From the NCBI GenBank assembly GCA_017937845.1, contig JAGBCV010000006.1, positions 1 to 64,000 of the forward strand: DNA of 64,000 nucleotides, in the 5' to 3' direction. A model generated the notes under the pieces. It did no database searches, was not told the DNA's origin, and saw only the letters and a list, made by a program, of their open reading frames with translations. Source of the DNA: Clostridia bacterium (GTDB lineage Bacteria; Bacillota; Clostridia; Oscillospirales; CAG-272). Within the stretch, counting starts at the first letter, position 1, and each line of letters starts with the position of its first letter. Position numbers and translations under genes: made by a program. Below, piece after piece: positions 1,802 to 20,066 of this stretch.

Positions 1802-1897
1802 AACTATCGATCCCAAAAAAAGAAAAGCACAGATACACGAGGAATCCTCTGATTTGAAAATTCCTCTATATCTATGCTGTCCGTCTTTTGAGCCAAA

Positions 1898-2269: not shown

Positions 2270-2409
2270 ATCGTATCCCTTTCATTTTTACGGAACACAT
2301 TTTCCCGTTTTTATTCTTTCATAAGAATATTTTAGCACATTTTTTGCGTTCTGTCAACAGGCAAAATTTTTAGTAAGGCAAGAATATGCATATATTTTTG
2401 ATTTTTTTG

Positions 2410-2991: not shown

Positions 2992-2992
2992 A

Positions 2993-3556: not shown

Positions 3557-3724
3557 CCTTTCTGATTTATATGATTTATGAGAATATTATAACAAACTTC
3601 TTTCTTTTTGTCAAATTATATCATTTATTATCTTGACAAATTCTTAATTTTTATATAAAATAAATATATGTTTAATCAAACTTTAACAAGATGTTGTAAA
3701 TACAAGAAAGAATGGAATACGGAC

Positions 3725-4570: not shown

Positions 4571-4626
4571 GGATCACCCATTCAATTTGCATTCTTTTTT
4601 CATTTTTAATCTCCTATTAAACCTCC

Positions 4627-4662
4627 GGAAAAGCCCCGCGGATAACGCGGGGCTTTTCCTTT
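4627..4662 (+). terminator. Rho-independent terminator after degV
   Basis: aaagccccgcg-gataa-cgcggggcttt followed by a T-run. Confidence 0.7.
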
Positions 4663-4712
4663 TGCCAGGATCACCATGCAAGCGAAAATTGACAGAAATC
4701 ACAAATTTCCCC

Positions 4713-4741
4713 TTGTATGGAAACGATTTTTATGGTATACT
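4713..4741 (+). promoter_or_regulatory. Sigma-A-like promoter (TTGTAT-17-TGgTATACT) upstream of the mannosidase gene
   Basis: -35 ttgtat at 4713-4718, 17-bp spacer, extended -10 tggtatact at 4733-4741. Confidence 0.45.
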
Positions 4742-4778
4742 GAACACATCAATATTTTATCAATGCAGGAGGAATCCC

Positions 4779-7700
4779 ATGAACGCACAATATCGCAAAG
4801 TCAAAAAATATCATGACATCATCAAAAAGCATCGATATTGCAATCAGACTGCTGTCGGCAATATAACAGTATGCCCTTGCGGTTATAAAGAAGGTCACAC
4901 CCCGCCTCCGCTTTCTGATTTTCAGCCCTATACGGTCGGTACCGATTGGGGTAGCGGATTTGATAGCCACGTTTGGTTCCATTTTGAGTTCAAAATTCCC
5001 GAAAACATGAAAAATAAACCCGTGGAACTGAAGGTCGCTTGCGATAAAGAAGGCGGCGTCGGCTCCAATCCGCAGTTTATTTTGTATATCAACGGCAAGA
5101 TCCGCCAAGGTCTTGATATCCGTCATACATCCGTACCGCTCTATGATATGGACGAAACCTATGACGTATACGTTTACGCTTACACCGGCGCGAGGATCCG
5201 CACAGCAAAGCTGTTCGTTGAACTTTATAACGTCAACACCGTCTGCAACGAGTTTTTCTGGGATATCGACGTACCGTTCGACACGCTTGAATTTACCGAC
5301 GAATATTCCATCGAATACGCCGATATTTTGAAATATCTCGATCATGCAGTTTCCATGCTCGACCTTTATGATCTCGGCTCTGACGAATTTTTCGCTTCCA
5401 TAGAAAAAGCGAAAGCATATTTCGACGCAGAATTTTACGGCAAGTACTGTGGAAACGCTAAAACACAGGTCACCGCCATCGGTCATACGCATATCGACTG
5501 CGCTTGGCTTTGGACACTCAAACAGACAAGAGAAAAGGTACAGCGTTCCTTTGCGACCGTGCTTGAGCTGATGAAGCGCTATCCCGAATACAAATTCATG
5601 TCCTCTCAAGCGTTCCTTTATAAAAACATGAAAGAGGAAGCCCCCGAGCTTTACGAGGAGATCAAGGAACGCATCAAAGAGGGACGCTGGGAATGTGAGG
5701 GTGCAATGTGGGTCGAAGCCGATTGCAACCTTTCCTCCGGCGAAAGCCTTGTCCGTCAGGTCATGTACGGCAAACGCTTCTTCAAGGATGAATTTGGTGT
5801 CGATAATCGCGTATTGTGGCTTCCCGACGTATTCGGCTATGCCGCAGCGCTCCCGCAGATCCTCAAAAAGAGCGGTGTCGATTGGTTCGTGACCTCCAAG
5901 ATCAGCTGGAACGACACCAATATGATGCCCTACGATACCTTTGAATGGTACGGCATCGACGGCACCCCCGTCCACACTTACTTCCTCACCGCATCGGATT
6001 ATCAACTCGGCAAAACACCTCCTCGCGGCACAACCTATAACGCGCAGATCACACCCAAAATGGTCGCAGGCACCATCAAGCGCTATCAGAATAAGGACCT
6101 CAGCAACGACGCGCTCATCACCTATGGTTACGGTGACGGCGGTGGCGGCCCGACCGTAGAAAATCTTGAAACCGCACGCCGTACCGCAAAGGGTATCCCC
6201 GGTGTTCCGCAGACCAAGCTGGAATTTGCAGGTGACTTCCTCACCCGTTTGGAAAAGAAGATGGCAGAAGCGAAGCGCGTTCCTGCATGGCATGGCGAGC
6301 TTTATCTCGAATATCACAGAGGTACCTACACCTCCATTTCCAAGAACAAACGCAACAACCGCAAGAGCGAATTTCTCTACATGAACACCGAAACCATCGG
6401 CAGTATGGCAAAAGCGCTCATCGGTATGCCCTTCCCAAAGGAAAAGCTCCACGAGGGCTGGGAATCGCTTCTCACGAACCAGTTCCACGATATCATTCCC
6501 GGCTCGTCCATTCGTGAGGTATACGAGCAGAGCGATATCGACTACGCAAATCTCATGCAGATCGCAAGCACCGAGCTTTCGACCGCAACGGAAGCGATCG
6601 CAAAGGGCATTTCCGCAGGCAGAGGACATGTCATTTTCAACCCGAACCCGTTCGTCGGCAACGGCATCGTGAAGATCGACGGCAAGAGCGCGTACGTCGT
6701 GGGAATCCCCGCCAAGGGCTACGCCGCGGCAGGACATCTCAAGCTCTATAATCGCATCATCATTCAGAATCAGACCGTGGAAACCGACAAGCTCCGCGTT
6801 CGTTTTGATGAAAACTGGCTCATCGAATCCGTTTACGATAAGATCAATGACCGTGAAGTCATTCGCGAGGGCGAAAAAGCCAATGAGATTCGCGTATACG
6901 CTGACCATCCCGACACCTACGACGCATGGGAATGGCAGGAATACTCCCTTGAGGATTACAAGGTCATCACGGACGTCACGAGTGTTGATATCATCGATGA
7001 CGGCGCAAGACGCGGTATCCGCATCACCCGTCCGTTCATGAAATCCACGATCACACAGACCGTTTGGTTCTATGACGATATCGCCAAGATCGACTTTGAA
7101 ACGGTTGCCGATTGGCACAATCAGCACCAGATGGTCAAGGCGGCATTCCCCGTCGATATCAACTCGATGAAAGCGACCTACGATATCCAGTACGGTACGA
7201 TCGAACGCCCGACCCATAAGAACACCAGCTGGGATAACGCAAAATTTGAGGTCTGCGCGCATAAATACGCCGATCTTTCCGAAGGCGGCTATGGCGTTGC
7301 CATTCTGAGCGATTGCAAATACGGCTACGATATCCATGACGGTCTGATGCAGATTTCCCTTTTCAAGACCCCGACCTCCCCGAACGAAGTTGCCGACCAG
7401 GGCGAGATCGTATTCACGTATTCGCTCTGTCCGCACGCAGGCACGCTCGCAGATTCGAATATCCCCGCGCTGGCATATGACCTCAATAACCCCATGTTTG
7501 CCATCAAGGCGACGGGCGTGAACAGTATTCTTCCCGAAGAATTTTCCATGGTGACATCGAGCGCAGAAAACCTCCTCTGCGAAGTCATCAAGGAAGCGGA
7601 AGATTCCGACGCAACGATCCTCCGATTCTATGAATCCAAGAATATGAAGACCACCGCCGAGATCACCCTCGGTATGCAGGCTGAGCATTGCTACCTCTGC

Positions 7701-7799
7701 GACCTCATGGAAAATGAGCTCGAAGAGCTTCCCATCGTCAAAGGCAAGGTAACCGTCAACGCTCATGGCTTTGAAATTTTGACCCTCAAGGTAAAATAA
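4779..7799 (+). CDS. GH38 alpha-mannosidase (cytoplasmic)
   Basis: GH38 N-terminal signature IGHTHIDCAWLW and DxFGY motifs. RBS aggagg 8 nt before ATG 4779. ~1006 aa. Confidence 0.85.
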   Translation: MNAQYRKVKKYHDIIKKHRYCNQTAVGNITVCPCGYKEGHTPPPLSDFQPYTVGTDWGSGFDSHVWFHFEFKIPENMKNKPVELKVACDKEGGVGSNPQFILYINGKIRQGLDIRHTSVPLYDMDETYDVYVYAYTGARIRTAKLFVELYNVNTVCNEFFWDIDVPFDTLEFTDEYSIEYADILKYLDHAVSMLDLYDLGSDEFFASIEKAKAYFDAEFYGKYCGNAKTQVTAIGHTHIDCAWLWTLKQTREKVQRSFATVLELMKRYPEYKFMSSQAFLYKNMKEEAPELYEEIKERIKEGRWECEGAMWVEADCNLSSGESLVRQVMYGKRFFKDEFGVDNRVLWLPDVFGYAAALPQILKKSGVDWFVTSKISWNDTNMMPYDTFEWYGIDGTPVHTYFLTASDYQLGKTPPRGTTYNAQITPKMVAGTIKRYQNKDLSNDALITYGYGDGGGGPTVENLETARRTAKGIPGVPQTKLEFAGDFLTRLEKKMAEAKRVPAWHGELYLEYHRGTYTSISKNKRNNRKSEFLYMNTETIGSMAKALIGMPFPKEKLHEGWESLLTNQFHDIIPGSSIREVYEQSDIDYANLMQIASTELSTATEAIAKGISAGRGHVIFNPNPFVGNGIVKIDGKSAYVVGIPAKGYAAAGHLKLYNRIIIQNQTVETDKLRVRFDENWLIESVYDKINDREVIREGEKANEIRVYADHPDTYDAWEWQEYSLEDYKVITDVTSVDIIDDGARRGIRITRPFMKSTITQTVWFYDDIAKIDFETVADWHNQHQMVKAAFPVDINSMKATYDIQYGTIERPTHKNTSWDNAKFEVCAHKYADLSEGGYGVAILSDCKYGYDIHDGLMQISLFKTPTSPNEVADQGEIVFTYSLCPHAGTLADSNIPALAYDLNNPMFAIKATGVNSILPEEFSMVTSSAENLLCEVIKEAEDSDATILRFYESKNMKTTAEITLGMQAEHCYLCDLMENELEELPIVKGKVTVNAHGFEILTLKVK

Positions 7800-7807
7800 A
7801 ACAGTAC

Positions 7808-7838
7808 AAAAAATGCACCTGCTCGCAGGTGCATTTTT
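7808..7838. terminator. Bidirectional intrinsic terminator between convergent genes
   Basis: aaaaaatgcacctgc-tcg-caggtgcatttttt. Confidence 0.65.
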
Positions 7839-7846
7839 TCATATAC

Positions 7847-8701
7847 TTACATTTTCACGCCGCCGACAAACACATCTGCGTTGCAATCAAAGACCGCATC
7901 TTCACGAATGACCTCGCCCGTGCTGTCAACGGAGATCTTACCCGAGCGCGGATTTTTGATGGAATCCACGTGTCCGATGACGCTTGCTTCCACGTCGGAA
8001 TATTCAAAGGAAAGATCACAACCCTCCATCGTGCAATCGATCAGACGGAGATTTTTGCAATAGCAAAGGGGCTGTGTACCGATGATCTTACAACGAATGA
8101 GCGTCAGATTCTCCGAAAACCAACCGAGATATTCCCCTTTCACGGTGCTATCCGTAACGGTCACGTTTTTCGCGTGCCAAAAAGCGTCCTTGGTGTCAAA
8201 GTTACTGTTTCGGATGGTGAGGTTTTCCATGTACTGAAAGGAGTATTTTCCTTTCATGGAAAGACCGTCGATCTCTACGTTTTTGCTGTCAAGGAAGATA
8301 TATTCCGAGGTGATTTGCGAGTTTTTGATGTTCACACCGTCGCATTTCCAGCCAAATTCAAGAGAGGTGATATCGGAATCCTTGACCGTCATATTCTGAC
8401 ATTCGCGGAGAATTTTAATGCTGTTAACGTGGCAATTTTTAAGCGTACCGTTTTCGTCATACCACATCGCGGCTCTCGCCTTTTCATCAAATTTCGAGTT
8501 CTCGATGAGAAAATTTCTGACGTGCCAAAGCGGATAACGAAGCGAGAACGAGCAGTTTTTGACCTCGATCCCGTTACATTCCTTCAAAACCGATTCTCCG
8601 TCGGCAGGACCTGCAAACGTGCAATCGACGACCTCCGTATCGACCAAATGATAAAGCGAGCGCTCTTCGTCAAACGTTTTATGTATGATTTGATTTTTCA
8701 T
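7847..8701 (-). CDS. Right-handed beta-helix repeat protein (DUF3737-like)
   Basis: Repeated ~22-aa units (NC.F..., N.T..DS.I) typical of parallel beta-helix proteins. 284 aa. Confidence 0.5.
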   Translation of the reverse strand: MKNQIIHKTFDEERSLYHLVDTEVVDCTFAGPADGESVLKECNGIEVKNCSFSLRYPLWHVRNFLIENSKFDEKARAAMWYDENGTLKNCHVNSIKILRECQNMTVKDSDITSLEFGWKCDGVNIKNSQITSEYIFLDSKNVEIDGLSMKGKYSFQYMENLTIRNSNFDTKDAFWHAKNVTVTDSTVKGEYLGWFSENLTLIRCKIIGTQPLCYCKNLRLIDCTMEGCDLSFEYSDVEASVIGHVDSIKNPRSGKISVDSTGEVIREDAVFDCNADVFVGGVKM

Positions 8702-8764
8702 ATATTTACAACGATTCCTTTGCTTAACTTTTTCCTATTAGTCTATCACAAAAATAGGTCAGTG

Positions 8765-10231
8765 TCAATTCTCACACCCAAAAAGCAATGAATCATTTCC
8801 TTTTTTCTCTTGAATCTCATTCCATTTCACTTGATATTCTCGTCCGTTTCGCAAAATAACAAACGAAAATATCTTTTCGGTGTTTTTCAACCGTACCTCT
8901 GCCCGATCTTCATATACCGTCATATCATCTAAAATCTCCCGAAAAAAGCCTTCTTCGGAAATCGAAAGCTGCAATACCTTCTCCATTTCCGAAAGCCGTT
9001 CTTCCCTTTTATAAAAATGCGCCCTTTCCGAAAGATATTCCTCTCTTGAAATATCCCCCAAAAGATAAAGCTCCCGTAATTTTTTCGTGCATAACTCGTT
9101 TCGTTTCGTAAGCTTTGCCCAAAGGAGCGCCATGACCGCTTGCTTTGCCATATCAATTTCATTTTGAACATTCGCAAGCGTAAGCGAAAGCATCTCTGAA
9201 ACGATATCGTTTTTGATCGAAACAGATGCGTGCTTCCCTTGGCATCGCCAAAGATGATAAATGCCGTTTTTTCGTTTTTGCACCCTTGCCGTCAGAATTT
9301 TCCCGCAAATGCCGCATCGAAGCTTTCCCGAAAAGGGATAGACCGTGCTGTGTTTTTCGCGTACGTTCTTCGTTTTTCGTTCCGATAAAAGCGCCTGCGC
9401 CCGTTCAAAGATTTCCCCGGAAACAATGGGCGTGTGGTGATTTTGAATCACGATCAATTCTTCCTCGCCGTGGTTGTATTTCTTCTCATGCGAAAGATAA
9501 TCCGGCGTGATCGTCTTTTTTTGCACGAGATCACCGCAATATTTCTCATTTTTCAGTATCCGCAAAATGACGGAGGGACTCCATGTTTTTGCGCTTTTGG
9601 GGGATATTCCCACGTCGGAAAGATATCTTGCGATCTCGGAAATGCTTCGCTTTTCTTCACAAAACAGCCGAAAAATGTACCGTACTGTTTCCGCGCCGTT
9701 CTCATTTACGGTCATTTCCCCGTTTTTCACGTCATATCCAAGCAAGCTATGCCCAAAGACCACACCGTTTTCCATGCGCCGTTTCTGTCCCCATTTCACA
9801 CGCTCGGAGGTTCTTCTGCTCTCCTCTTGCGCGATGGAGGAAAGAATCGCCAACCGAAGCTCCGCATCGGCTTCTCTCGTATCAATGCCATCATTCAGAA
9901 AACATACGCCAACACCAAGATGTTTCAGCTCTCTCGTATAAGAAATGCTATCCAAAATATTCCGCGCAAATCGTGAAATTTCTTTTGTCAGAATCAGTTC
10001 AAATTTACCGTCGCGGGCATCTCGCATCATGCGCTTGAAGGCTTCCCTTTTTTTCACGTTCGTTCCCGTCGTTCCCTCGTCGGCGTAAATTTCATATAAA
10101 TTCCATTCGGGATTTTTTTCGATATATTCCCCGAAAAAACGCTTTTGACTTTCAAAGGAGCTTGCCTGTTCTCCCCTGTCTGTGGAAACACGGCAATAGG
10201 CGGCGACGTACTTTTTTTCATTCGATATCAT
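8765..10231 (-). CDS. Large serine recombinase (resolvase domain + recombinase domain + zinc ribbon)
   Basis: N-terminal YCRVSTDRGEQ...SFESQ catalytic Ser motif. 488 aa with a central recombinase domain and CGICG...C zinc ribbon. Sized like SpoIVCA/TnpX-type recombinases. Confidence 0.85.
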   Translation of the reverse strand: MISNEKKYVAAYCRVSTDRGEQASSFESQKRFFGEYIEKNPEWNLYEIYADEGTTGTNVKKREAFKRMMRDARDGKFELILTKEISRFARNILDSISYTRELKHLGVGVCFLNDGIDTREADAELRLAILSSIAQEESRRTSERVKWGQKRRMENGVVFGHSLLGYDVKNGEMTVNENGAETVRYIFRLFCEEKRSISEIARYLSDVGISPKSAKTWSPSVILRILKNEKYCGDLVQKKTITPDYLSHEKKYNHGEEELIVIQNHHTPIVSGEIFERAQALLSERKTKNVREKHSTVYPFSGKLRCGICGKILTARVQKRKNGIYHLWRCQGKHASVSIKNDIVSEMLSLTLANVQNEIDMAKQAVMALLWAKLTKRNELCTKKLRELYLLGDISREEYLSERAHFYKREERLSEMEKVLQLSISEEGFFREILDDMTVYEDRAEVRLKNTEKIFSFVILRNGREYQVKWNEIQEKKGNDSLLFGCEN

Positions 10232-10426
10232 CGGTTTGCGTCCTCATTTTTTCGCGCAAAGGTGCCGTAAAGTGCAAAAATTCCTCCTCCGAGAGCAGTT
10301 TTTTCTCCCATAACACCGCAAAAAATGCATACTGAATCCGCCAAAAAAGCAATCTTTCCATGACTTCACCTCCAAAAAAATACTACCTCATTTTATGAAG
10401 GCTTTCGGTTTTTCAGTCCAAAAAAC

Positions 10427-10858
10427 GCCATATTGTTTGCGCTTGTAGGTACAGAAGAACTCGCCCATCTCGAAATGATTGCAGCGATCCTGTATCAGCT
10501 CACGCGCAATCTCACCCCCGAGGAAATCAAAAAAACGGGCTTTGACACCTATTTTGTCGACCATACCGCGGGAATTTATCCTCAATCCGCAGGCGGAACA
10601 CCGTTTACTGCCGCTTATATCGGCATCAAGGGCGACGTTTTCGCCGATTTGAACGAGGATCTGGCGGCAGAACAGAAGGCGCGTGTAACGTATGATAACA
10701 TTCTTCGTCTCGTAGATGACCCCGACGTCCGTGACCCCATCAAATTCCTCCGCCAAAGAGAGATCACTCATTATCAGCGGTTCGGTGATGCACTTCGTAT
10801 CGCGCAGGATCATGCAGACTGCAAGAATTTTTATGCATATAACCCTGCATTTGACTGA
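10427..10858 (+). pseudogene. cotJC: C-terminal segment of the split CotJC-like Mn catalase gene
   Basis: LVGTEELAHLEMIAAILYQLTRNLTPEEIKKTGF...FTAAYIGIKGDVFADLNEDLAAEQKARVTYDNILRLVDDPDVRDPIKFLRQREITHYQRF aligns along its length with CotJC (IGTEEFAHLEMIATMVYKLT...FLREREIVHSMRF). Upstream in-frame sequence is unrelated, with a stop at 10361. Confidence 0.75.
10448..10457. repeat. Right copy of the 10-bp direct repeat GGTACAGAAG (putative attR core)
   Basis: Identical to 1790-1799. Lies in frame at the GTEE codons of the catalase C-terminal segment. Confidence 0.6.
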
Positions 10859-10934
10859 GCGTAAGTAATTTTCCCAAAAATTGACGGCGATTCTCTGTGT
10901 GAGAATCGCCGTTTCTGTATGAAGAAAACTATCA

Positions 10935-11177
10935 CTATTTTCGATATTTATTATAAAAATCAATCATCAATTTTTCAATTACTTCAAAATCAAATGTTGG
11001 AACTGGACGATGATTACTTTTCGACATCCTGCCACCAAGATTATGTCCAGCGGCGGTTAATGTCCAATCATCAAAGTTATCTTTGATGACTAAGCCCATA
11101 TCCTTCCACATACCATAAACCCACTCGGTGCTCATTCCTACCGCTCTACCTACGAAACGTGCTGACATTCTACTCAT
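10935..11177 (-). CDS. Hypothetical small protein (80 aa), low GC
   Basis: Tightly packed with two upstream genes on the same strand. No recognisable domain. Confidence 0.4.
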   Translation of the reverse strand: MSRMSARFVGRAVGMSTEWVYGMWKDMGLVIKDNFDDWTLTAAGHNLGGRMSKSNHRPVPTFDFEVIEKLMIDFYNKYRK

Positions 11178-11189
11178 AAATTACTCCTT

Positions 11190-11417
11190 TCAATCATCGT
11201 TGGAAAGATACCAACCGTGTTCTCTACGAGGAAGATTCAACGGAAAACGACTGGAAATTGTATTCACAATATCAATTCTCTTAAGATCGAGTTGCAAATA
11301 GTCCTCTGAATCATAATCCATGTCATTGAGAACGGATCGCATATCCGCCTCAACAGAGCGAAGCTCTTTTTCGGTTGCACTTTGCATCCAAGAATCCGTA
11401 ATATAACTAAATTTCAT
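11190..11417 (-). CDS. Hypothetical small acidic protein (75 aa), low GC
   Basis: 3-bp gap to the upstream gene. No recognisable domain. Confidence 0.4.
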   Translation of the reverse strand: MKFSYITDSWMQSATEKELRSVEADMRSVLNDMDYDSEDYLQLDLKRIDIVNTISSRFPLNLPRREHGWYLSNDD

Positions 11418-11419
11418 GG

Positions 11420-12292
11420 TTAACCCTCCTGCATTAAGATTTGTTTTATCTTATCGGGTTCTTGAATTACAAGAAACTCCAATACAGCTTTCATAAAAAA
11501 TTCAACCGTCTTTCCCCCAAGTACTTTGTTGGTAGCAGCAGTTATATCTGAATCGTAAGAAAATATGGAAACAAATCCGCACGCAAAATCCCATGCCGTT
11601 ATAGTTTCGTCATGACTTACAATCTTACAATAACAAAAAATCTTATGTATAATGCTTTGTACTTCATCGCAAGAGGGACTCAAATGTATCATATCCTTTA
11701 ATTCTAAAATAGCAGATAAATATTCATCTTTGGTTTCTTCACTAAGTTCTGGTACAAGTTCATGAGATAACATTTCAAGTCGGTTAATTTCTGTATCCTC
11801 AATATTCTGAATATCATCAATTTGGGATATATACTCTATTGAACTCAAAACTTTTTGCAATTTTTTATCCTTGTCAAGATATTCGATAAAATCGGTCAGA
11901 TAACTATTGAAATCTGTACTTCCCATCAATACATTTGGAGGATATGGAACAAAACCGACTCCTTTAACATATTTCATAAATTCAATCAAAACTTGAAGTT
12001 CCTTGATTTGTTGTTCATATTTTTGAATTAATTCGTTAAGAGAATCTCTAACACTGATTTTTTCTCCCTGAGTCAAATCTTTTATTTGAGCATAAGAAAG
12101 ACCCATTTTTCGACACAAGTATGCATTCCAAACGATTTCCACTTCTTCTTGCGAATAAGTTCTTGGAGTATAATTTTTATTTATAATCCATTCGTTATCA
12201 TTTCTTTTAGGAGAAATCAAACCTTGTCTTTCGCATTCACGAAGAAAATTTCGGTCAATACCTGCTTTTGTTATATCTTGTGTTTTCATGAT
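11420..12292 (-). CDS. MerR-like HTH protein with a ~200-aa C-terminal domain of unknown function
   Basis: N-terminal ITKAGIDRNFLRECERQGLISP...YSQEEVEIV...GLSYAQIKDL follows the MerR HTH pattern. Start taken at MKTQDIT. Low GC. Confidence 0.5.
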   Translation of the reverse strand: MMKTQDITKAGIDRNFLRECERQGLISPKRNDNEWIINKNYTPRTYSQEEVEIVWNAYLCRKMGLSYAQIKDLTQGEKISVRDSLNELIQKYEQQIKELQVLIEFMKYVKGVGFVPYPPNVLMGSTDFNSYLTDFIEYLDKDKKLQKVLSSIEYISQIDDIQNIEDTEINRLEMLSHELVPELSEETKDEYLSAILELKDMIHLSPSCDEVQSIIHKIFCYCKIVSHDETITAWDFACGFVSIFSYDSDITAATNKVLGGKTVEFFMKAVLEFLVIQEPDKIKQILMQEG

Positions 12293-12371
12293 TTTCCCTC
12301 CTTTGTCTATATTATAATAAATGGTATTACACCGTTTCAATAGCTTTTATAAAAATCATTAAATTTTTTGT

Positions 12372-12453
12372 AATAAATATCCACCCTCATATGAAGTGAT
12401 CCAAAAAGTGTCTATCTTTTGAGGTTCATCTCTATAATGGGTGGATATTTATT
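12372..12453. repeat. Hairpin repeat of the AAATATCCACC(C)...(G)GGTGGATATTT family (15-bp perfect arms, 52-bp loop)
   Basis: aataaatatccaccc at 12372-12386 is the reverse complement of gggtggatatttatt at 12439-12453. Related copies at 18493-18523 and 20028-20066. Confidence 0.55.
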
Positions 12454-12456
12454 ATG

Positions 12457-13749
12457 TTATTGCTCCAGCATGATCTTGATGATTTCTTTATCGGTCTCGC
12501 CCATGCCCTCTCTGGCAAGACGTCCGATGTTGCGTATGGTATTTTCAACGCCTTTCGTCACGATGCCGTCGCCTGCATAGAATTGCCGTCCCGTTTTCGC
12601 CATTTCATAGCCCAAGATGCCTGCTTCGACCGCCATTGCGATCTTCGCGGCACAGGAAGGCTTCGCGCCGTCACAAATCGTACCGGACAAAATCGCTACG
12701 GCGTTTACGATCGTATGGGCAATCTGAGAATACGTACCGCCAAGCAAAAAGGCGATACCTGCACCGCAACCACAGCCCGCACTGATCGCACCGCAATATG
12801 CAGACAGACAACCGATTCCCGCCTTTTGATGCACCGTCACGAGATTCGACACGATCAAAGCACGGAGCAAGCGTTCATGGTCGATGCCATGCTCACGGGC
12901 GTAAATGATAACGGGGACAGAAGCGGTAATGCCTTGGTTGCCGCTGCCGGAAATGATGCAGACCGCCAGCTCACAGCCACTCATGCGCGCATCTGAGCCT
13001 GCGGCGGCATACGCTCTGGCGCGTCTTGCCGTATCGGCAACGCCGATCTGCAAAAGAAGCTTGCCGATCGATGCACCGTAAGAATGTTTCAAGCCCTCCT
13101 CGGCAATCGTCATATTCAGCTCGATCTGCTTTTCCAAATATGGACGAAGCTCATCAAGCGGTACTTCCTCCGCAAACGTCACGATATCCCGCACGTTGAG
13201 AAGATTTTCCCGAAGCTCCTTGGCGGATTCCGCCGTTACGTTTTCATCATGCGTTTCACAATATCGACCGAGCAAGGAAACGTCGTTTCGCGTTACGGCT
13301 ACCACGTTCGTATGGTTTTCCTTGATGCGGACCGTCGCTACGTCATCGCCGCGCTTACCCGTCAGCTTCAGATCAAAGCTGCATCGGGAGTTGAGTTCAT
13401 ATATCTCGATGTTACATTGATCTTTATACGCCGCGATCTGCTCGATATCCTGTTCCTGCAAAACGCCCAAGACCTCAAGCTTCTGCTCGTAAGCATTGGC
13501 GATCACACCGGCAGCAACCGCGCTTTCGATTCCGTGCATACCGCCCGTCGCGGGAACGACGACGCTTTTGACGTTTTTGATGATGTTACCGCTCAGACCT
13601 ACGGAAATCGCTTCCGCTCGACCGCCAAGCACGTCGGTCAAGATAGATGCCGCATATGCAATGGATATCGGCTCTGTGCAACCCATGGCGGGGCGCAATT
13701 CGTCCTTCAGTATCGCAGTATAGCTCGTAATGATGTCAGATGAAAGCAT
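12457..13749 (-). CDS. UPF0597/YhaM-family L-cysteine desulfidase-like protein
   Basis: Conserved AMGCTEPISIAYAAS motif and length. Start chosen at the internal ATG preceded by gaggaaaa RBS. Confidence 0.75.
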   Translation of the reverse strand: MLSSDIITSYTAILKDELRPAMGCTEPISIAYAASILTDVLGGRAEAISVGLSGNIIKNVKSVVVPATGGMHGIESAVAAGVIANAYEQKLEVLGVLQEQDIEQIAAYKDQCNIEIYELNSRCSFDLKLTGKRGDDVATVRIKENHTNVVAVTRNDVSLLGRYCETHDENVTAESAKELRENLLNVRDIVTFAEEVPLDELRPYLEKQIELNMTIAEEGLKHSYGASIGKLLLQIGVADTARRARAYAAAGSDARMSGCELAVCIISGSGNQGITASVPVIIYAREHGIDHERLLRALIVSNLVTVHQKAGIGCLSAYCGAISAGCGCGAGIAFLLGGTYSQIAHTIVNAVAILSGTICDGAKPSCAAKIAMAVEAGILGYEMAKTGRQFYAGDGIVTKGVENTIRNIGRLAREGMGETDKEIIKIMLEQ

Positions 13750-13904
13750 AGTCTTATTTTCCTCACTCAAAAAATCAATATTTATTGCATATAGTTTATC
13801 ATATCCAGCCGTTTTTTTCAATAGACTTTCCTAAGATTCTTATGGGAATCACATTTCAAAGCCAAATTGATTTTTCGGCTGAATGGATTTAATTGGTATT
13901 ATAC

Positions 13905-13933
13905 TTGACTTTTTCGCTTTTATATGCTATAAT
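13905..13933 (+). promoter_or_regulatory. Consensus sigma-A promoter TTGACT-17-TATAAT
   Basis: ttgact at 13905-13910, 17-bp spacer, tataat at 13928-13933 (preceded by tgc). Confidence 0.6.
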
Positions 13934-13998
13934 ATTATCAAAAATAAAGGTATGCTTTATGCGGTGATTCGATAAGGCAGCCTCAGTAGGAGTATATT

Positions 13999-14637
13999 AT
14001 GGCAATTCAACTGTTCGCACTTCCTCATAAGCACAGCAACTTTCCTCTGCGTTTGGCGAAAGGGCATTTTGCCACCAGCCACAGCCACTTGAACTATTAT
14101 ATCGACTTCACGATGTCCAAATATCGTCTTTCTGAGGCTCGTGCCGGCGCGCAGATCCTTTGCAATCAGCTTCCTCTTACACAAATCGTGGATACGATCC
14201 TTTGCTTGGACGGCACCGAGGTGATCGGCGCTTGCATGGCAAGTGAGCTGACCCGCGCCGGCTACGTAAATATGAATGCACATCGTACCATCTACGTCAT
14301 TTCGCCCGAATACACCAGCGGCAGCCAGATGATCTTCCGCGATAACATCGCGCCCATGATCGTCGGTAAGCACGTTTTGGTTTTGGCAGCTTCTCTCGCA
14401 ACCGGTTATACCGCTCGCTCCGCTATCGAAGCGATCCGTTATTATCAAGGTATTCCCGTCGGCGTTTGCTCGATCTTTGCTTGCGTGGAAGAATGTGAAG
14501 GCTTCCCCGTTCGCAGTATCTATAACAAAAACGATATTCCCGATTACGAAAGCCATTCCGCTCACGATTGCCCCTTGTGCAAGGCAGGCATCAAGATCGA
14601 CGGCTTGGTCAACAGCCACGGCATTTCCAGCTTGTAA
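13999..14637 (+). CDS. Hypothetical protein with a degenerate phosphoribosyltransferase-like fold and C-terminal CxxC
   Basis: RBS aggagt. HVLVLAASLATGYTARSAIEAI resembles a PRTase loop but lacks the acidic pair. A spurious 276-aa ORF lies on the opposite strand. Confidence 0.45.
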   Translation: MAIQLFALPHKHSNFPLRLAKGHFATSHSHLNYYIDFTMSKYRLSEARAGAQILCNQLPLTQIVDTILCLDGTEVIGACMASELTRAGYVNMNAHRTIYVISPEYTSGSQMIFRDNIAPMIVGKHVLVLAASLATGYTARSAIEAIRYYQGIPVGVCSIFACVEECEGFPVRSIYNKNDIPDYESHSAHDCPLCKAGIKIDGLVNSHGISSL

Positions 14638-14734
14638 TACATTTTTAAGCCATCCGAGAGGGTGGCTTTTTTTGTACCAAAAACCGAAAATGCGAAAAAT
14701 TCCAAGCGTATTCCCTGCTTTTTTCCGATAAAGA

Positions 14735-14763
14735 TTGATTTTTGGTGCATAATATTGTATACT
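14735..14763 (+). promoter_or_regulatory. Sigma-A-like promoter TTGATT-17-TGtTATACT
   Basis: ttgatt at 14735-14740, 17-bp spacer, extended -10 tgtatact. Confidence 0.5.
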
Positions 14764-14804
14764 GTATATAAATAGAAATTTTTCCACAAAAAGGAGGATA
14801 TCAT

Positions 14805-16199
14805 ATGGGACTTATCAAAGCAGGACTTGGCGCTCTCGGAGGCGTACTTGCCGACCAATGGAAGGAGTTTTTCTATTGTGATGCGATGGACGAGGACGTT
14901 TTGGTCACGAAAGGCCGCAAGCGCGTAAGCGGTCGCTCTTCCAACACCAAGGCATCTGACAATATCATTTCCAACGGCTCGGGGATCGCCGTCGCAGACG
15001 GACAATGTATGATGATCGTTGAGCAAGGCAAGGTCGTGGAGGTTTGCGCGGAACCCGGTGAATTTACCTACGATACATCCACAGAACCATCGATCTTCGC
15101 AGGCTCTCTCGGTCAAAGCATTCTCGATACCTTTAAGGCGATCGGTAAGCGCTTCACCTACGGCGGTGACACAGGCAAAGACCAGAGAATCTATTATTTC
15201 AACACCAAAGAGCTGATCGACAATAAGTTCGGCACGTCGACACCGATCCCCTTCCGCGTTGTGGACCGCAAGATCGGTCTTGACGTTGACGTTTCCGTCC
15301 GTTGCTTCGGCGTATATTCCTATCGCATCGCCGACCCGCTCATGTTCTACACCAACATTTGCGGAAACGTAGAAAGCGAATATACCCGCGACCGCCTTGA
15401 CGGACAGCTCAAAACGGAATTTATCAGCGCGCTTCAGCCTGCCTTCGGCAAGCTTTCCGATATGGAGCTTCGCCCCAATCAAATCATTTCGCACAACACC
15501 GACTTGGAGATCGCCATGAACGAAGCGCTCAGCGCAAAATGGCAACGCCGCGGCTTGCAGGTCGTCAGCGTTGCACTCGGTTCGGTCACGCTTCCCGAGG
15601 AGGATGCGGAAATGATCAAGCAGGCACAGCGTACCGCCATCATGCGCGACCCCACGATGGCTGCCGCGACCATCGTCGGCGCACAGGCTGACGCGATGAA
15701 GGCTGCCGCTTCCAACTCCGCAGGCGCGATGAACGGCTTCGTCGGCATGGGTATGGCAATGAATGCAGGCGGTGTCAACGCGCAAAATCTCTTTGCGATG
15801 GGTCAAACACAGACAAGACAGGAAGCACCTGCCGTATCGCAAAGCGCCAATACTTGGAAATGCACTTGCGGTGCTACGGCAGAGGGCAAGTTCTGCCCCG
15901 AATGCGGCGCAAAGAAGCCCGCGCCCGCGGCTTTGGGCGAATGGACCTGTACTTGCGGCGCAAAAAATACGGGAAAATTCTGCATGGAATGTGGCGCGAA
16001 AAAGCCCGAGGACGGTTGGCTCTGCTCCTGCGGTGCGAAAAACAAGGGTAAATTCTGCCCCGAATGCGGCGCGAGAAAGCCCGCAGGCGTTCCGCAGTAC
16101 CGTTGCGACAAATGCGGTTGGGAACCCAAAAAGGGCGCAAAGCCGCCGAAATTCTGTCCCGAATGCGGCGACCCCTTTGACGACGGAGATATCAAATAA
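14805..16199 (+). CDS. SPFH/band-7 domain protein (YdjI-like) with four tandem C-terminal zinc-ribbon modules
   Basis: RBS aaaggagga. Central SPFH-like region. C-terminus carries 4 tandem CxCG-x7-C-x-ECG-x-KKP modules. Confidence 0.7.
   Translation: MGLIKAGLGALGGVLADQWKEFFYCDAMDEDVLVTKGRKRVSGRSSNTKASDNIISNGSGIAVADGQCMMIVEQGKVVEVCAEPGEFTYDTSTEPSIFAGSLGQSILDTFKAIGKRFTYGGDTGKDQRIYYFNTKELIDNKFGTSTPIPFRVVDRKIGLDVDVSVRCFGVYSYRIADPLMFYTNICGNVESEYTRDRLDGQLKTEFISALQPAFGKLSDMELRPNQIISHNTDLEIAMNEALSAKWQRRGLQVVSVALGSVTLPEEDAEMIKQAQRTAIMRDPTMAAATIVGAQADAMKAAASNSAGAMNGFVGMGMAMNAGGVNAQNLFAMGQTQTRQEAPAVSQSANTWKCTCGATAEGKFCPECGAKKPAPAALGEWTCTCGAKNTGKFCMECGAKKPEDGWLCSCGAKNKGKFCPECGARKPAGVPQYRCDKCGWEPKKGAKPPKFCPECGDPFDDGDIK
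15855..16196 (+). repeat. In-frame tandem repeats encoding zinc-ribbon modules (W.C.CGAK..GKFCPECGAKKP)
   Basis: Four consecutive ~75-87 bp units with conserved tgcggcgc/aaattctgc/gaatgcggcgc strings. Confidence 0.6.
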
Positions 16200-16216
16200 T
16201 CGATCGGAGGTTCATC

Positions 16217-17296
16217 ATGGCAAACGTATTGGAATATAAATGTCCCTGTTGCGGCGGCGCTGTCGCCTTTGACAGTAAGACGCAAAACATGAAATGCCCC
16301 TATTGCGATACGGAATTTGACCCCGAAGCGCTCGCGGAAGATGAAGAAAATGATACCAACCAGGACGATATGCAATGGGAAACTTCTCCCGGCGCCGATT
16401 GGCAGGAGGGCGAAGAAGAATCGCTCCGCGCTTACGTCTGCCATTCCTGCGGCGGTGAGATCGTCAGCGACGAAAATACGGCGGCGACCTCTTGCCCATT
16501 CTGCGGAAATCCCGTCATCATGACGGAAAGACTTTCGGGATCTCTCAAGCCGGATTATATCATTCCCTTCAAAATCGACAAAAAAGCGGCAAAGGATGCT
16601 TTGTTCAAGCATTACCGCGGGAAAAAGCTCCTGCCCAAAATCTTCAAGGACGAAAATCACATCGATGAGGTCAGAGGTATTTACGTGCCGTTCTGGCTTT
16701 TTGATGCAGATGCCGATGCCAATATTCGCTATAAGGCGACCCGCGTGCGCGTTTGGAGCGACAGAAATTACGATTACCGCGAAACGTCGTTCTATTCCAT
16801 TCATCGCGGCGGTTCTTTGGGCTTTGAGCGCGTTCCCGTGGACGGCTCGGAGAAGATGGCGAATGCGCTCATGGAATCCATCGAGCCCTTTGACTTTTCG
16901 GACGCGGTGGATTTTAAGACCGCTTATCTTTCGGGATTTTTGGCGGACAAATACGATGTAGATGCGGAACAGAGCATCAAACGCGCCAACGAACGCATCA
17001 AGACCAGCACGGAATCTGCTTTCGCCTCCACGGTGCATGGCTACGCTTCGGTGATCCCCGAATACAGCAACATTCGTTTGCGCGACGGCAAAGCCAAATA
17101 TGCGCTCTATCCCGTCTGGATCTTGAACACCACGTGGAACGGACAAAAATACACCTTTGCCATGAATGGGCAAACGGGAAAATTCGCAGGCGATCTTCCG
17201 CTCGATAAAAGCGCTTACGCCAAATGGCTCTTTGGGCTGACGGGGATCGGGAGCGCCGCCGCGATGGCGCTCTTCTATCTGCTTTGGCTTATATAA
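16217..17296 (+). CDS. Double zinc-ribbon membrane protein (YdjG-like)
   Basis: N-terminal CPCCGG...CPYCD and CHSCGG...CPFCGN ribbons and a C-terminal TM helix. Translationally coupled position between the SPFH and TPM genes. Confidence 0.55.
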   Translation: MANVLEYKCPCCGGAVAFDSKTQNMKCPYCDTEFDPEALAEDEENDTNQDDMQWETSPGADWQEGEEESLRAYVCHSCGGEIVSDENTAATSCPFCGNPVIMTERLSGSLKPDYIIPFKIDKKAAKDALFKHYRGKKLLPKIFKDENHIDEVRGIYVPFWLFDADADANIRYKATRVRVWSDRNYDYRETSFYSIHRGGSLGFERVPVDGSEKMANALMESIEPFDFSDAVDFKTAYLSGFLADKYDVDAEQSIKRANERIKTSTESAFASTVHGYASVIPEYSNIRLRDGKAKYALYPVWILNTTWNGQKYTFAMNGQTGKFAGDLPLDKSAYAKWLFGLTGIGSAAAMALFYLLWLI

Positions 17297-17308
17297 GGAG
17301 GTTCGGAT

Positions 17309-18091
17309 ATGAAAAGATATTTTACGCTCATACTGGTGATCTCCTTGTGTCTTTTCCTCTGCTTCCCCGTTTCCGCAGGAGAGCAGATGCCAAGACTCAT
17401 CGACGAGGCTGACCTGCTGACAAACAGCGAGGAAGCTTCCCTTTTGGCAACGCTGAATGAGATCAGCGAAAGACAAGGTATGGATATCGTCGTTTTGACG
17501 GTCTATTCCTTGGACGGCAAATCGCCGCGTGCGTATGCCGATGATTTTTATGACAACGGCGGTTACGGCTACGACGGCATTTTGCTTCTTCTCAGCATGG
17601 AATTTCGTGATTGGTACATATCGACGAGCGGTTACGGCATCACGGCGCTGACTGACGCGGGCATCGATTACATCTCCGACCAATTTCTCCCTGCGCTCAG
17701 CAGTGGGGAGTATGCAGACGCTTTTACGACCTACGCAACGCTTTGCGATGATTTCATCGACGAAGCCAAGACAGGAAAGCCCTACGATATCGGCTCACTG
17801 CCCAAGGCACCTTTTGCCGTCGGACAAAAGCTCCTGCTCTCTTTGGTCATCGGATTTGTGATCGCGTTCATCATCACAAGCATTATGAAATCCAAGCTGA
17901 AATCCGTCAAGGCGCAAGCTGCCGCGAACAATTACGTGAGAGCGGGCAGCTTACAGATCACACACAGCCATGACCGTTTTCTTTACCGACACGTTGACCG
18001 CAGAGCAAGACCCCAAAATAACGGTGGCGGCTCTTCCACACATACGTCTTCCTCGGGCAGATCGCACGGTGGCGGCGGCGGAAAATTCTAA
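17309..18091 (+). CDS. TPM-domain (YgcG/YdjH-like) membrane protein with Gly-rich tail
   Basis: Signal peptide. EADLLTNSEEASLLATLNEISERQGMDIVVLTV matches the TPM/TLP18.3 phosphatase-like domain. TM helix and GGGSS...GGGGG tail. Confidence 0.7.
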   Translation: MKRYFTLILVISLCLFLCFPVSAGEQMPRLIDEADLLTNSEEASLLATLNEISERQGMDIVVLTVYSLDGKSPRAYADDFYDNGGYGYDGILLLLSMEFRDWYISTSGYGITALTDAGIDYISDQFLPALSSGEYADAFTTYATLCDDFIDEAKTGKPYDIGSLPKAPFAVGQKLLLSLVIGFVIAFIITSIMKSKLKSVKAQAAANNYVRAGSLQITHSHDRFLYRHVDRRARPQNNGGGSSTHTSSSGRSHGGGGGKF

Positions 18092-18103
18092 GTATACGAA
18101 AAA

Positions 18104-18128
18104 GCAGGAGCGACGCTCCTGCTTTTCA
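18104..18128 (+). terminator. Rho-independent terminator
   Basis: agcaggagcg-acg-ctcctgct followed by tttc. Confidence 0.6.
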
Positions 18129-18129
18129 T

Positions 18130-18520
18130 TTGTATAACGAAAACCACGCGATAGTCGCGTGGTTCAATAAAGGCTATTGCCGATAAGCAGAAAACAAATA
18201 AAAAGTCAGGGCAGAATGTCCTTGTGTCAAAGGCTCCCTCCGGGAGGGAGCTGGCGAGCGAACGCGAGACTGAGGGAGCACGCGCACGCTCAATCATGCA
18301 GTTGAAATGAGGCGAGAGGGAGAACTATAGTTTTCGCGGGCTCCTTCCACCGCAAGCGGTCCCCCTTCCTCCCGGAGGAAGGCTTTTTACGCAACCCGTT
18401 TACGGGTAGCAAGTAGCAATTGCGTGGCTGGCAGGCCAATCTAAAACGCACTTGTGCGTAGCCAGTAGAGTGTAGGGCTATGCCCGAAAATGAAATACCA
18501 CCCGCTATGCGGGTGGATAT
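18130..18520. other. ~400-bp GC-rich, hairpin-dense convergent intergenic region (candidate sRNA or decayed element)
   Basis: Several strong hairpins (aaccacgcgatagtcgcgtggtt, ccctccgggaggg, cctcccggaggaagg, ccacccgctatgcgggtgg). No credible ORF. Confidence 0.3.
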
Positions 18521-18550
18521 TTATTGGATATGAGGAATCATTTCCGCAAT

Positions 18551-19204
18551 TTAATCCTTCCAAACGAAATGATAATTGATGGATTCACCGCCGTCCACAA
18601 GGATATTTTGTCCTGTGCAAAAGGTGTTGACAACGGTCAGAAAATACGCCCACTCGGCGATCTCCTCGGGGGTCGCCCATTTTTTCAGCGGTGTTTCCTC
18701 CATGATATGCGCCCAAAGTTCGGGATCATTCATAACACATTCATTGAGCGGAGTCAAAACGCCGCCCGGGTCAAGACTGTTACACGTTGCGCCAAACGCC
18801 GCCACACGCAGAGCGACGTTTTTGGTATAGGAGAGGATACCTCCCTTGCTCGCGCAATATTCGGGAAATTCCGCGCCCGTATGCGCGCTTGCCGAGCCGA
18901 TATTCAAAATGGATTTGATATCCTTTTGAACGCCGTAGGTTTCGGTGATATGGATCAGCGCCTTCAAATTGACGTCGATATCGTTTTCGTTTTGCGTTCC
19001 TGCGTTGTTGATGAGTATCTGGACGCCCGAAAGCGCAGGGAGATTTTGATAATCGCGCACATCACAGGTATAATGCGTATACCGCTCATGAGAAATGCTC
19101 GCTTCTTGTCTGTCGATGCCCCAAACGATATGCCCCTTTTGCAAAAAATGCGCCGCGATCGCCCGTCCGATGCCTTGTGTCGTTCCCGTGATCAAAACAT
19201 TCAT
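18551..19204 (-). CDS. SDR-family oxidoreductase
   Basis: MNVLITGTTQGIGRAIA Rossmann motif and YxxxK (YCASK). Start taken at the internal ATG that overlaps the upstream stop by ATGA. Confidence 0.8.
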   Translation of the reverse strand: MNVLITGTTQGIGRAIAAHFLQKGHIVWGIDRQEASISHERYTHYTCDVRDYQNLPALSGVQILINNAGTQNENDIDVNLKALIHITETYGVQKDIKSILNIGSASAHTGAEFPEYCASKGGILSYTKNVALRVAAFGATCNSLDPGGVLTPLNECVMNDPELWAHIMEETPLKKWATPEEIAEWAYFLTVVNTFCTGQNILVDGGESINYHFVWKD

Positions 19205-19953: not shown

Positions 19954-20027
19954 ATTGATATATACTCCGTTTTTATCCTATCAAGGGGTTTTGCCTTATT
20001 ATATCATATATTTTCATAAGTTTCAAG

Positions 20028-20066
20028 AAAAATATCCACCATTGCCGAAGCAAGGTGGATATTTTT
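20028..20066. repeat. Hairpin repeat aaaaatatccacc-N13-ggtggatattttt
   Basis: 12-bp perfect arms. Same family as 12372-12453 and 18493-18523. Confidence 0.55.

Follow-up and report, generated by a model that had tools for sequence, protein, structure and literature searches.

What is the block of small genes that stands beside a split catalase gene in this Clostridia bacterium, how did it come to be there, and what might it do? We have examined it within a window of 64,000 nucleotides, the whole stretch of contig JAGBCV010000006.1 that was analyzed. An earlier sequence-only reading had described a stretch of low GC content with three close-packed genes on the minus strand and a hairpin at one edge, and all three features were borne out. 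The GC content of 10915-12452 is 0.333, compared with 0.477 in the 5 kb to the left and 0.514 in the 5 kb to the right (0.48-0.51 in the flanks), a value below the first percentile among all windows of 1538 bp. The genes, which we term A (11420-12289, minus strand, 289 aa), B (11190-11417, minus strand, 75 aa) and C (10935-11177, minus strand, 80 aa), are separated by gaps of 2 and 12 nt, and have a single promoter and a single terminator between them. The start of A was taken as the ATG downstream of a ribosome-binding site, GGAGGG; the list of open reading frames extends A to a TTG at 12340. The hairpin is a perfect inverted repeat of 16 nt (12371-12386 and 12439-12454) with a spacer of 52 nt and a folding energy of −34 kcal/mol. 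The explanation that we favor, and consider reasonably probable, is that 10915-12452 came in by horizontal transfer as an accessory operon, framed by IS200-family sequences, in which A would induce itself on binding a ligand while B and C constitute interchangeable cargo.

The host genes around the insert converge on one common terminator. This resident bidirectional element (10884-10912) is shared by the 3′ piece of the catalase gene (10433-10858; match to Mn_catalase with E = 2.7e-31), which ends 57 nt ahead of the insert, and an SDH_alpha-like gene, and it now also ends A-B-C.

The insertion is strain variable, because eight conspecific contigs (L022-L029; 98-99% identical) lack exactly the 1538 bp of 10915-12452, which contain the whole cassette, and have only TGA at the insertion point. 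The site is filled at the same position in 10 contigs (L030-L039) that are 99.6-100% identical to the window. An apparently variant left end in L035 was rejected as a scaffold gap of Ns. Exact searches of IMG/VR for the junction sequences of the cassette gave no match. The earlier proposal that an operon-like unit with a MerR-like head had been acquired horizontally, with presence and absence across strains as its test, is thus upheld by the clean empty sites, the low GC content, the conservation of B and C discussed below, and the single promoter and terminator. Horizontal acquisition is therefore supported, and the insertion is an accessory operon carried by only one sub-lineage of a gut Clostridia species.

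IS200-family elements encode a Y1 transposase and move by a "peel-and-paste" process. The ends of the insert (TGTAT...GGATATTTATT) are the tips of a bona fide element of this family. The left-end tip (10916-10929, plus strand; TGTATGAAGAAAAC) matches at 13 of 14 bases the left end of a complete element in L040 (TGTATAAAGAAAAC), the ORF of which matches Y1_Tnp at E = 2e-40, and the same motif also begins a second insert at 18131. On the right are two right-end fragments in inverted orientation (12371-12454), together forming the long hairpin; the inverted copy occupies 12371-12391, the direct copy runs up to 12453, closing with GGGTGGATATTTATT, and about 50 unrelated nucleotides lie between them. 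The right-end tip of 15 nt is identical at all 15 positions to the right ends of both the L040 element and the second insert. The tips coincide exactly with the boundaries set by the empty sites, and elsewhere in the window IS200-end motifs are found only at the second insert. The latter (18131-18525, plus strand), 5.7 kb from the cassette, is a transposase-less copy of the same element, of the MITE/PATE type. It too is strain specific, being absent from L022-L029, and its ends are closely similar to those of the complete L040 element (97% identity over 35 nt on the left and 98% over 52 nt on the right).

The type of site that holds the insert is also one used by this family. In 90 independent flanks the element has inserted directly after a terminator hairpin and the sequence TT(T/A)T. 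Both inserts in the window occupy terminator-type sites, and the cassette follows the T-tract directly, without a target-site duplication, as do IS200/IS605 elements and their PATE and MITE derivatives. The base ahead of its left end is C and not T, as in 1 of the 90 family copies. In other respects the cassette differs from such elements. No tnpA was found in the insert; the left end has no subterminal hairpin, with the stop codon of gene C lying 20 nt from the end and a fold of just −1 kcal/mol; and the hairpin of the right end is replaced by the two inverted fragments. Because it has neither a left-end hairpin nor a transposase, the cassette is probably now immobile. Moreover it carries a passenger operon of three genes, whereas there was no cargo in any of 40 complete copies found by searching with the left-end hairpin pattern. 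The complete copies measure 698-724 bp, and there is one MITE of 494 bp. To our knowledge an operon has not been reported as the cargo of an IS200-family element. From the location immediately behind a T-tract and the IS terminal sequences that frame the insert, we infer that the cassette most likely came with, or was captured inside, an IS200-family element.

Could the cassette instead be ancestral at this locus, and have been cleanly deleted in the other lineages? Presence and absence alone give no direction to the change, and an exact look-up of B placed the cassette at one genomic site only. The junctions are also unlike those of a textbook insertion with intact flanks; the right flank of the insert differs from the empty-site allele. 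Against this, the GC content of the cassette is 15 points under that of the flanks, and A-family cassettes form low-GC islands in unrelated genomes as well (L004, L008, L062 and L063). The IS200-family tips fall exactly on both boundaries, and the empty sites retain an intact common terminator, the type of site that this family targets. Furthermore the filled contigs are a near-clonal group while the empty ones make up a more diverse set. We consider an ancestral cassette very unlikely.

The neighboring catalase gene suggests another possible origin, since the sequence-only reading had placed the cassette next to the junction of the element that splits it. The cassette might be part of this serine-recombinase element, for example as a regulator or directionality factor, and the right junction of the element is indeed 475 nt away, with C predicted to have an excisionase-like winged helix. 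It is nevertheless outside the element, as the catalase 5′ piece (1691-1798) and the 3′ piece from approximately 10448 have a common core, GGTACAGAAG. In addition, it is common for a strain to have the recombinase element and yet lack the cassette. The link between the two is thus not sustained, and we regard it as extremely improbable. The recombinase itself is a serine recombinase of 488 aa.

Having placed the cassette as an acquired operon, we turn to its regulator. A had been described as MerR-like over its N terminus and unrecognizable beyond. In the predicted structure (a monomer model) it comprises a MerR winged helix (residues ~1-75), a coiled-coil segment modeled as one 31-residue helix (81-111, pLDDT 88-95) and a TipAS-like helical domain (~125-289). 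The middle helix stands where MerR-family proteins have the long antiparallel coiled coil through which they dimerize. TipAS is the best structural match to the model and AlbA is among the best, so that the remainder of the protein is evidently recognizable by its fold. The N terminus is indeed a winged helix-turn-helix of MerR type in the model, although its direct match to the Pfam MerR family is weak (E = 0.004, under the family cut-off). A Pfam scan of A found no TipAS match; a profile search gave a match to 3qao, in its C-domain (E = 0.059), and among distant relatives in sequence there are matches to MerR_1 and weak ones to TipAS (PF07739). On the predicted structure A is a MerR regulator of the TipA/AlbA class, and we count the modeled folds of both A and C as established. 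It has the same three-part architecture as TipAL, Mta and AlbA and is of similar size, but is very divergent in sequence, with a sub-threshold match to MerR_1 and none to TipAS. TipAS has a reactive cysteine. In the family alignment of A the C-domain lacks a conserved cysteine altogether, and C19 in the N-terminal domain is the sole invariant one. Met105, a possible internal start, is common in the alignment, though not invariant. The family is rare, with 53 clusters and members in 5 of 185,579 species genomes, and no homolog was found in IMG/VR or among PLSDB plasmids (tblastn).

The promoter of the operon (12311-12340, minus strand) has TTGAAA and TATAAT separated by 18 nt, matching the consensus at 11 of 12 positions, and is kept upstream of nine A-family genes. 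A palindrome AAACGGT-N5-ACC(G/A)TTT (12319-12337) extends into the −35 box and takes up the whole spacer, and we regard this as a putative operator for A. The window copy is AAACGGT-N5-ACCATTT, and most members of the family have the ACCGTTT half-site. The half-sites are nearly invariant across nine loci whose A proteins are 35-72% identical to that of the window, and there is no second palindrome of the AAACGGT type in the window. Members of the TipA class have an autoregulated promoter, and produce a short ligand-binding isoform from an internal start. MerR-activated promoters typically have spacers of 19-20 nt, compared with the 18 nt found here, a point of difference from the TipAL/Mta/AlbA class. 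The related cassettes headed by MerR277 and MerR285 have 19-nt spacers with palindromes, as read from their sequences. Like members of that class, A has its putative operator, a palindrome, between the two boxes of the promoter from which it is itself transcribed, and an operator so placed is typical of MerR promoters (PMC8113463, PMC1526738). TipA/AlbA-class proteins are described as up-regulating themselves in a preprint (bioRxiv 10.64898/2026.09.21.753095).

Because the putative operator lies on its own promoter, A probably regulates itself. MerR regulators activate in response to a ligand, by distorting the DNA of the promoter. A dimer of A would bind the palindrome, and a small molecule bound by the TipAS-like domain would then cause A to activate A, B and C together, a positive autoregulation modeled on TipAL and AlbA. 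Given a spacer of 18 nt, one or two short of the usual length, A may act by simple repression instead of activation.

The two small proteins had been said to lack detectable domains, and their conservation at the protein level was a test of the earlier reading. Homologs of B fall into 74 clusters and those of C into 118, and judged from these sequences both are real families conserved as proteins. B is acidic (pI 4.6), with an invariant C-terminal motif SRFPLNLPxREHGWYLxNDD, and C is basic (pI 9.5). No Pfam family was found for B; member-wise Pfam scans of the alignments of B or C gave nothing consistent; and scans of A, B and C against Pfam, NCBIfam, PHROGs and PADLOC gave only sub-threshold matches. 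The lack of a known family therefore stands for both proteins, but not the lack of a domain in C, which is predicted to be a DNA-binding protein with a winged helix of the MerR/excisionase type.

Genes for B and C are met elsewhere too, one without the other or both as a B-C pair, in prophages and integrative elements where they follow different MerR or XRE regulators. The related cassettes have the orders MerR277-(Zn-ribbon/TM/B fusion)-C, MerR285-MSNLG124-B, A-MSNLG124-Zn ribbon, XRE153-TM134-DUF1294-C and XRE153-TM140-B. In L074 and P0199/P0240 a zinc ribbon and/or a membrane segment precedes the B domain in a fusion protein. Relatives of B and C are located in a prophage and near integrases, a relaxase and tRNA genes, and tblastn found no homolog of either in GenBank phages. 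Thus B and C are interchangeable cargo behind MerR- or XRE-type regulators. A-B-C resembles prophage morons and the cargo of integrative elements, units in which the relatives of B and C occur, in having its own promoter and regulator, low GC content and variable content. It differs from them in standing alone in a housekeeping region, where no gene for an integrase, a phage or conjugation lies nearby. It also sets A apart from the TipAL/Mta/AlbA class, whose members stand alone or control an efflux pump, that A heads a variable operon of small cargo genes on mobile DNA.

What might such cargo do? The sequence-only reading suggested a toxin-antitoxin-like or defense-associated cassette, and A-B-C could be a regulator-controlled anti-phage, superinfection-exclusion or abortive-infection unit in which A senses infection or stress and B and C are effectors. 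One prophage has genes of the B and C types in moron-like, self-regulated cassettes that lie between its portal gene and the HNH/TerL genes, and integrase-borne islands have such genes at their cargo ends. The neighbors of A homologs recall defense islands (NERD as direct cargo, AAA ATPase, NERD/Zn-ribbon, DndB/HATPase and WYL), and AbiEii adjoins a related MerR cassette. With PADLOC-DB 2.0, residues 3-56 of C gave a partial and weak match to PDC-S69, a candidate model with 289 positions, over its positions 79-131 (E = 1.5e-4), and residues 8-56 of A gave another such match to mad1 (E = 1e-3). B and C are also like a type II toxin-antitoxin system in being two small adjacent genes on acquired DNA, one product acidic and the other basic, with one DNA-binding fold. 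However, nothing lay above the family threshold in PADLOC, Pfam or NCBIfam, and there was no match to a toxin or antitoxin family. The fold predicted for C is that of a winged-helix DNA-binding protein, and no toxin or nuclease fold is recognizable in B or C. The two are found apart, unlike an obligate toxin-antitoxin pair, and have a sensor-regulator of 289 aa upstream; nor do the searches of IMG/VR for A and of GenBank phages for B and C lend this explanation support. The toxin-antitoxin or defense assignment is thus not borne out by these comparisons; a role in defense or superinfection exclusion is possible, and as an explanation of the whole cassette we find it doubtful.

A quite different role would make A itself the effector, a drug-sequestering resistance protein in the manner of TipAS and AlbA, self-induced by a thiopeptide-like or other natural product, with B and C as passengers. 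TipAL and TipAS are known for antibiotic binding and self-induction. The structural matches of A to TipAS and AlbA, and the operator on its own promoter, are consistent with this role, as is the statement in the preprint cited above (bioRxiv 10.64898/2026.09.21.753095) that TipA and AlbA neutralize antibiotics by binding them and are self-induced. Yet the sequence of A does not match TipAS, and its C-domain lacks a conserved cysteine. Furthermore A homologs always have co-transcribed cargo genes behind them, suggesting that it is the regulated output that matters. We consider sequestration by A unlikely.

Returning to the acquired, self-inducing operon that we favor, we can set it in a broader frame. 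It may be that regulators of two kinds, MerR/TipAS-type and membrane-anchored XRE-type, draw on a common stock of small cargo genes, among them those for B, C, the MSNLG membrane protein, the TM134 protein and zinc-ribbon proteins. Such cassettes would be inducible, would belong to the mobile elements of Clostridia as an accessory class not described before, and would act for example in superinfection exclusion or defense; the one in this window would have been brought to a terminator as peel-and-paste cargo of an IS200-family element. We offer this as speculation, and think it fairly unlikely. If the regulator and its shuffled cargo do constitute a functional system, it would be a self-inducible accessory cassette that recurs in mobile elements of gut Clostridia with uncharacterized cargo. 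The conserved operator and TipAS-like sensor would provide a direct handle on the inducing signal and a ready reporter. The IS200-family framing hints that tiny single-strand transposons could set passenger operons precisely behind terminators, and if true, such delivery would be a new way for individual strains to gain genes. Should none of it hold true, what is left is an ordinary strain-specific islet.

Some structured elements of the region were also considered. An Rfam scan of 10300-20300 returned nothing but one spurious sRNA match. A structured RNA resembling tracrRNA or omega RNA beside the hairpin was rejected, as the neighboring ORFs encode IS200 TnpA. The GGTGGATATTT hairpin was likewise rejected as an element specific to the cassette: one copy belongs to an ordinary native terminator (20030-20064) that is present in all strains, and the others are right ends of the IS200 family.

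Three genes lie packed on the minus strand of the window. They encode a MerR/TipA-type regulator (A, 11420-12289, 289 aa counted from the ATG that follows a GGAGGG ribosome-binding site) and two small proteins, B (11190-11417, 75 aa, pI 4.6) and C (10935-11177, 80 aa, pI 9.5), with intergenic gaps of 2 and 12 nt. The cassette segment has a GC content of 0.333, below the 1st percentile of the window's same-size windows; the adjoining 5 kb reach 0.477 on the left and 0.514 on the right. The 3′ piece of a Mn-catalase gene (10433-10858) ends just upstream of the cassette, an SDH_alpha-family gene (12457-13749/13821, minus strand) lies on the other side, and the border on the promoter side carries a perfect inverted repeat of 16 nt with a 52-nt spacer (12371-12386 / 12439-12454). 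The packing, the low GC content and a bordering hairpin had all been noted in the sequence-only reading, and are confirmed.

Conspecific contigs were retrieved by exact look-up of the neighboring SDH_alpha-like protein, giving eight (L022-L029) with 98-99% identical DNA. In these the catalase piece and a serine recombinase directly follow the SDH_alpha-like gene, and alignment shows that three bases stand in for window 10915-12452 (1538 bp). The empty allele has a single bidirectional terminator common to both convergent host genes. When protein B was looked up exactly, ten more contigs proved to carry the cassette, every one at the same site; their identity of 99.6-100% to the window indicates a near-clonal sub-lineage. 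The segment 10915-12452 is a strain-variable insertion. The horizontal acquisition proposed from sequence, for which a comparison across strains had been advised, is thus upheld by the empty site, the GC content below that of the flanks, and insertion sequence (IS) tips at both ends.

A second insert (18131-18525), absent from the same eight contigs, is a strain-specific, transposase-less (MITE/PATE-type) IS200-family copy of 395 bp, with hairpins at both ends and a repeat-rich interior, placed directly behind the upstream gene's terminator. Both inserts start with TGTAT[G/A]A[A/C]GAAAAC and end with GGGTGGATATTTATT; neither motif was found elsewhere in the window, save for an inverted copy of GGGTGGATATTTATT in the cassette hairpin. 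The hairpin of the second insert, CCACCCGCTATGCGGGTGG, is present in 22 IMG/VR contigs, where it adjoins ORFs of SLAHTKW.CKYH..F.PKYRRK type. One such ORF, in the complete element of contig L040, matches Y1_Tnp (IS200 transposase) with E 2e-40. This element of 718 bp comprises a left end TGTATAAAGAAAAC plus hairpin, tnpA, and a right end ...CCACCCGCTATGCGGGTGGATATTTATT, and the second insert matches it at 97% over 35 nt on the left and 98% over 52 nt on the right. The left-end pattern occurs >120 times in gut metagenome contigs; in that search no cargo was found in any complete copy (698-724 bp) or in the one 494-bp MITE. The 90 distinct left flanks are nearly always an intrinsic-terminator hairpin, then TT(T/A)T. 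The family (L040, L083-L212) is abundant in gut metagenomes and has a striking target preference, and its own right end (…TTTATT) recreates a TT(T/A)T-type target site.

The cassette insert retains only a 14-nt left tip (13/14) and a 15-nt right tip (15/15). The left-end hairpin is missing because the stop codon of gene C lies 20 nt from the end. On the right side there are two right-end fragments of ~20 nt in inverted orientation with ~50 unrelated bases between them, and the right flank reads ATGTTATTGC as against GATATTTATTGC in the empty allele. The cassette deviates from the site pattern in that C precedes the left end. Target duplication was found at neither window insert, and both sit after a terminator hairpin and T-rich tract, as in the IS family. 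We conclude that an IS200-family element had a part in placing the cassette at this site, either by transposition of the whole unit or by capture of the operon in a resident MITE. A second A-family cassette adjoins this IS200 family, in contig L001, where the end hairpin CCACCCGCTATGCGGGTGG followed by GTTATAC (7788-7806) lies ~100 nt downstream of the cassette at the contig end. A native terminator of the window (20030-20064, AAATATCCACC-loop-GGTGGATATTT) occurs in every strain and contains the GGTGGATATTT motif common to the IS ends, so that the motif alone is no marker of mobile DNA.

Could the locus instead be ancestral, and deleted in the other strains? The low GC content, the IS tips and the restriction of the cassette to one near-clonal group speak against this, and we regard it as very improbable. 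Even less credible is that the cassette forms part of its neighbor, an element of ~8.6 kb (~1799-10447) that splits a CotJC-type Mn-catalase gene into pieces at 1691-1798 (5′) and 10433-10858 (3′). The core GGTACAGAAG is common to both junctions (5′ piece 1691-1798; 3′ piece from ~10448), a large serine recombinase of 488 aa (8765-10231, minus strand) adjoins the right junction, and the whole resembles the intervening elements of sporulation genes. This element is found in strains both with and without the cassette. The cassette is outside it and independent of it, and a link to this element is not supported.

The A family comprises 53 clusters at 90% identity, every member 280-297 aa long and lacking a precomputed Pfam domain. 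Members are present in 5 of 185,579 species genomes, each of them a MAG assigned to Eubacteriales, Ruminococcus, Clostridia or Christensenellaceae, and homologs were not found in IMG/VR or PLSDB. The AlphaFold model (pLDDT 88.7, 35-sequence alignment) has a winged helix (~1-75), a 31-residue helix (81-111) and a helical bundle (~125-289). Searching 1.8 billion representatives with a profile gave 251 relatives; nine of ten distant ones scanned (~270-345 aa, one 521 aa) pass the MerR_1 threshold, three of the nine with weak TipAS matches, and hhalign of the A family with the MerR protein of locus L074 gave 98.5% probability over 254 columns. From the model, these relatives and the L074 alignment, the C-domain is a divergent TipAS-type predicted sensor domain, and A is a new, divergent member of the known TipAL/Mta/AlbA class. 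The MerR assignment made earlier therefore stands, while the supposed novelty of the C-domain does not.

Every A homolog with upstream sequence (nine loci, A proteins 35-72% identical to that of the window) has the promoter TTGAAA-CGGT-N5-ACC(G/A)TTT-..-TATAAT. The palindrome AAACGGT-N5-ACCGTTT overlaps the -35 box and occupies the 18-nt spacer. MerR operators have the same layout, although their spacers are usually 19-20 nt (PMC8113463, PMC1526738). Cassettes headed by two related regulators, MerR277 and MerR285, have 19-nt spacers, each with its own palindrome. As the palindrome lies in the A promoter and is the sole such site in the window, A most likely controls its own operon through this putative operator. 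The operon ends at the resident terminator (10884-10912). At three loci (L004 5150-5979, L010 6152-6931, L011 6161-6930) the A gene is preceded by an XRE-type protein of 167-169 aa (74-83% identical, Cys-rich motif CNxYCANECPIG) and a lysine-rich micro-ORF of 31-57 aa, which suggests that some cassette versions carry a larger conserved regulatory module.

With 74 clusters for B and 118 for C, both small ORFs belong to conserved protein families, in line with the earlier reading of them as proteins. In a 'Clostridia bacterium' MAG, identical copies carry the annotation hypothetical protein, and neither B nor C matched Pfam, NCBIfam or PHROG families; the sole PADLOC match is partial, of C to the candidate PDC-S69. 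The C model (pLDDT 93.8) is a small winged helix of the MerR superfamily, closest to RacA, RppC, pSK1 Par, the TerS N-domain, Xis and TorI. B has an acidic helical N-part and an invariant tail SRFPLNLPxREHGWYLxNDD, and fusions exist in which it follows a membrane segment, alone or together with a zinc ribbon. Homolog contexts, compiled and then summarized by tblastn, show three kinds of leading regulator: A-type MerR, MerR277/285 (24% identical to A) and a probably membrane-anchored XRE of 153 aa. The genes behind each come from a single common pool. Beside A-B-C in the window we find MerR277-(Zn-ribbon/TM/B fusion)-C-141 aa (L074), MerR285-MSNLG124-B (L079), A-MSNLG124-Zn ribbon (L062, L063), A-TM134-like-73 aa (L008), A-NERD-two small genes (L004), XRE153-TM134-DUF1294-C (L012) and XRE153-TM140-B (L017). 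B-C adjacency is seen twice, with regulators only 24% identical, and B and C are each also found alone. B and C are shuffled among regulators. The cassettes lie in a prophage, between portal and HNH/TerL genes, and at the cargo ends of integrase-borne islands; one adjoins a relaxase (MobA/MobL) plus primase module and two adjoin tRNA genes. Cassettes in GC-rich hosts are low-GC islands.

The cassette is probably an acquired, self-regulated accessory operon, with B and C as mobile-element cargo. A would bind the palindrome in its own promoter, its TipAS-like domain would sense a ligand, and A would then switch on A, B and C, of which C would bind DNA. These genomic contexts are also suggestive of a defense, exclusion or toxin-antitoxin-like unit, as the sequence-only reading had proposed; however, there is no family match or toxin fold, and B and C are separable, making that assignment unlikely. 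Somewhat more doubtful still is that A is a drug-sequestering resistance protein with the other genes as passengers. Neither the cassette type, in which a regulator heads exchangeable small cargo genes, nor the IS200-family ends around it make up a new category; both are unusual forms of known kinds.

The XRE153 regulators (L012 4508-4969, L017 5060-5521) carry a hydrophobic C-terminal segment that probably spans the membrane, and may be membrane-anchored transcription factors. The catalase 5′ piece lacks any start codon and about the first 28 codons. Window 151-1688, which has the lowest GC of the whole window (0.32), lies directly upstream of the truncated piece and encodes a Peptidase_M78 (ImmA/IrrE-like) protein (421-1023) and an unknown protein of 199 aa (1024-1623). 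This stretch may be a further acquisition, one that took away the beginning of the catalase gene. Inside the recombinase element, a 123-aa protein (1898-2269, minus strand) consists mostly of an RNA polymerase alpha C-terminal domain (PF03118, E 3e-17), which is unusual as a small stand-alone protein.
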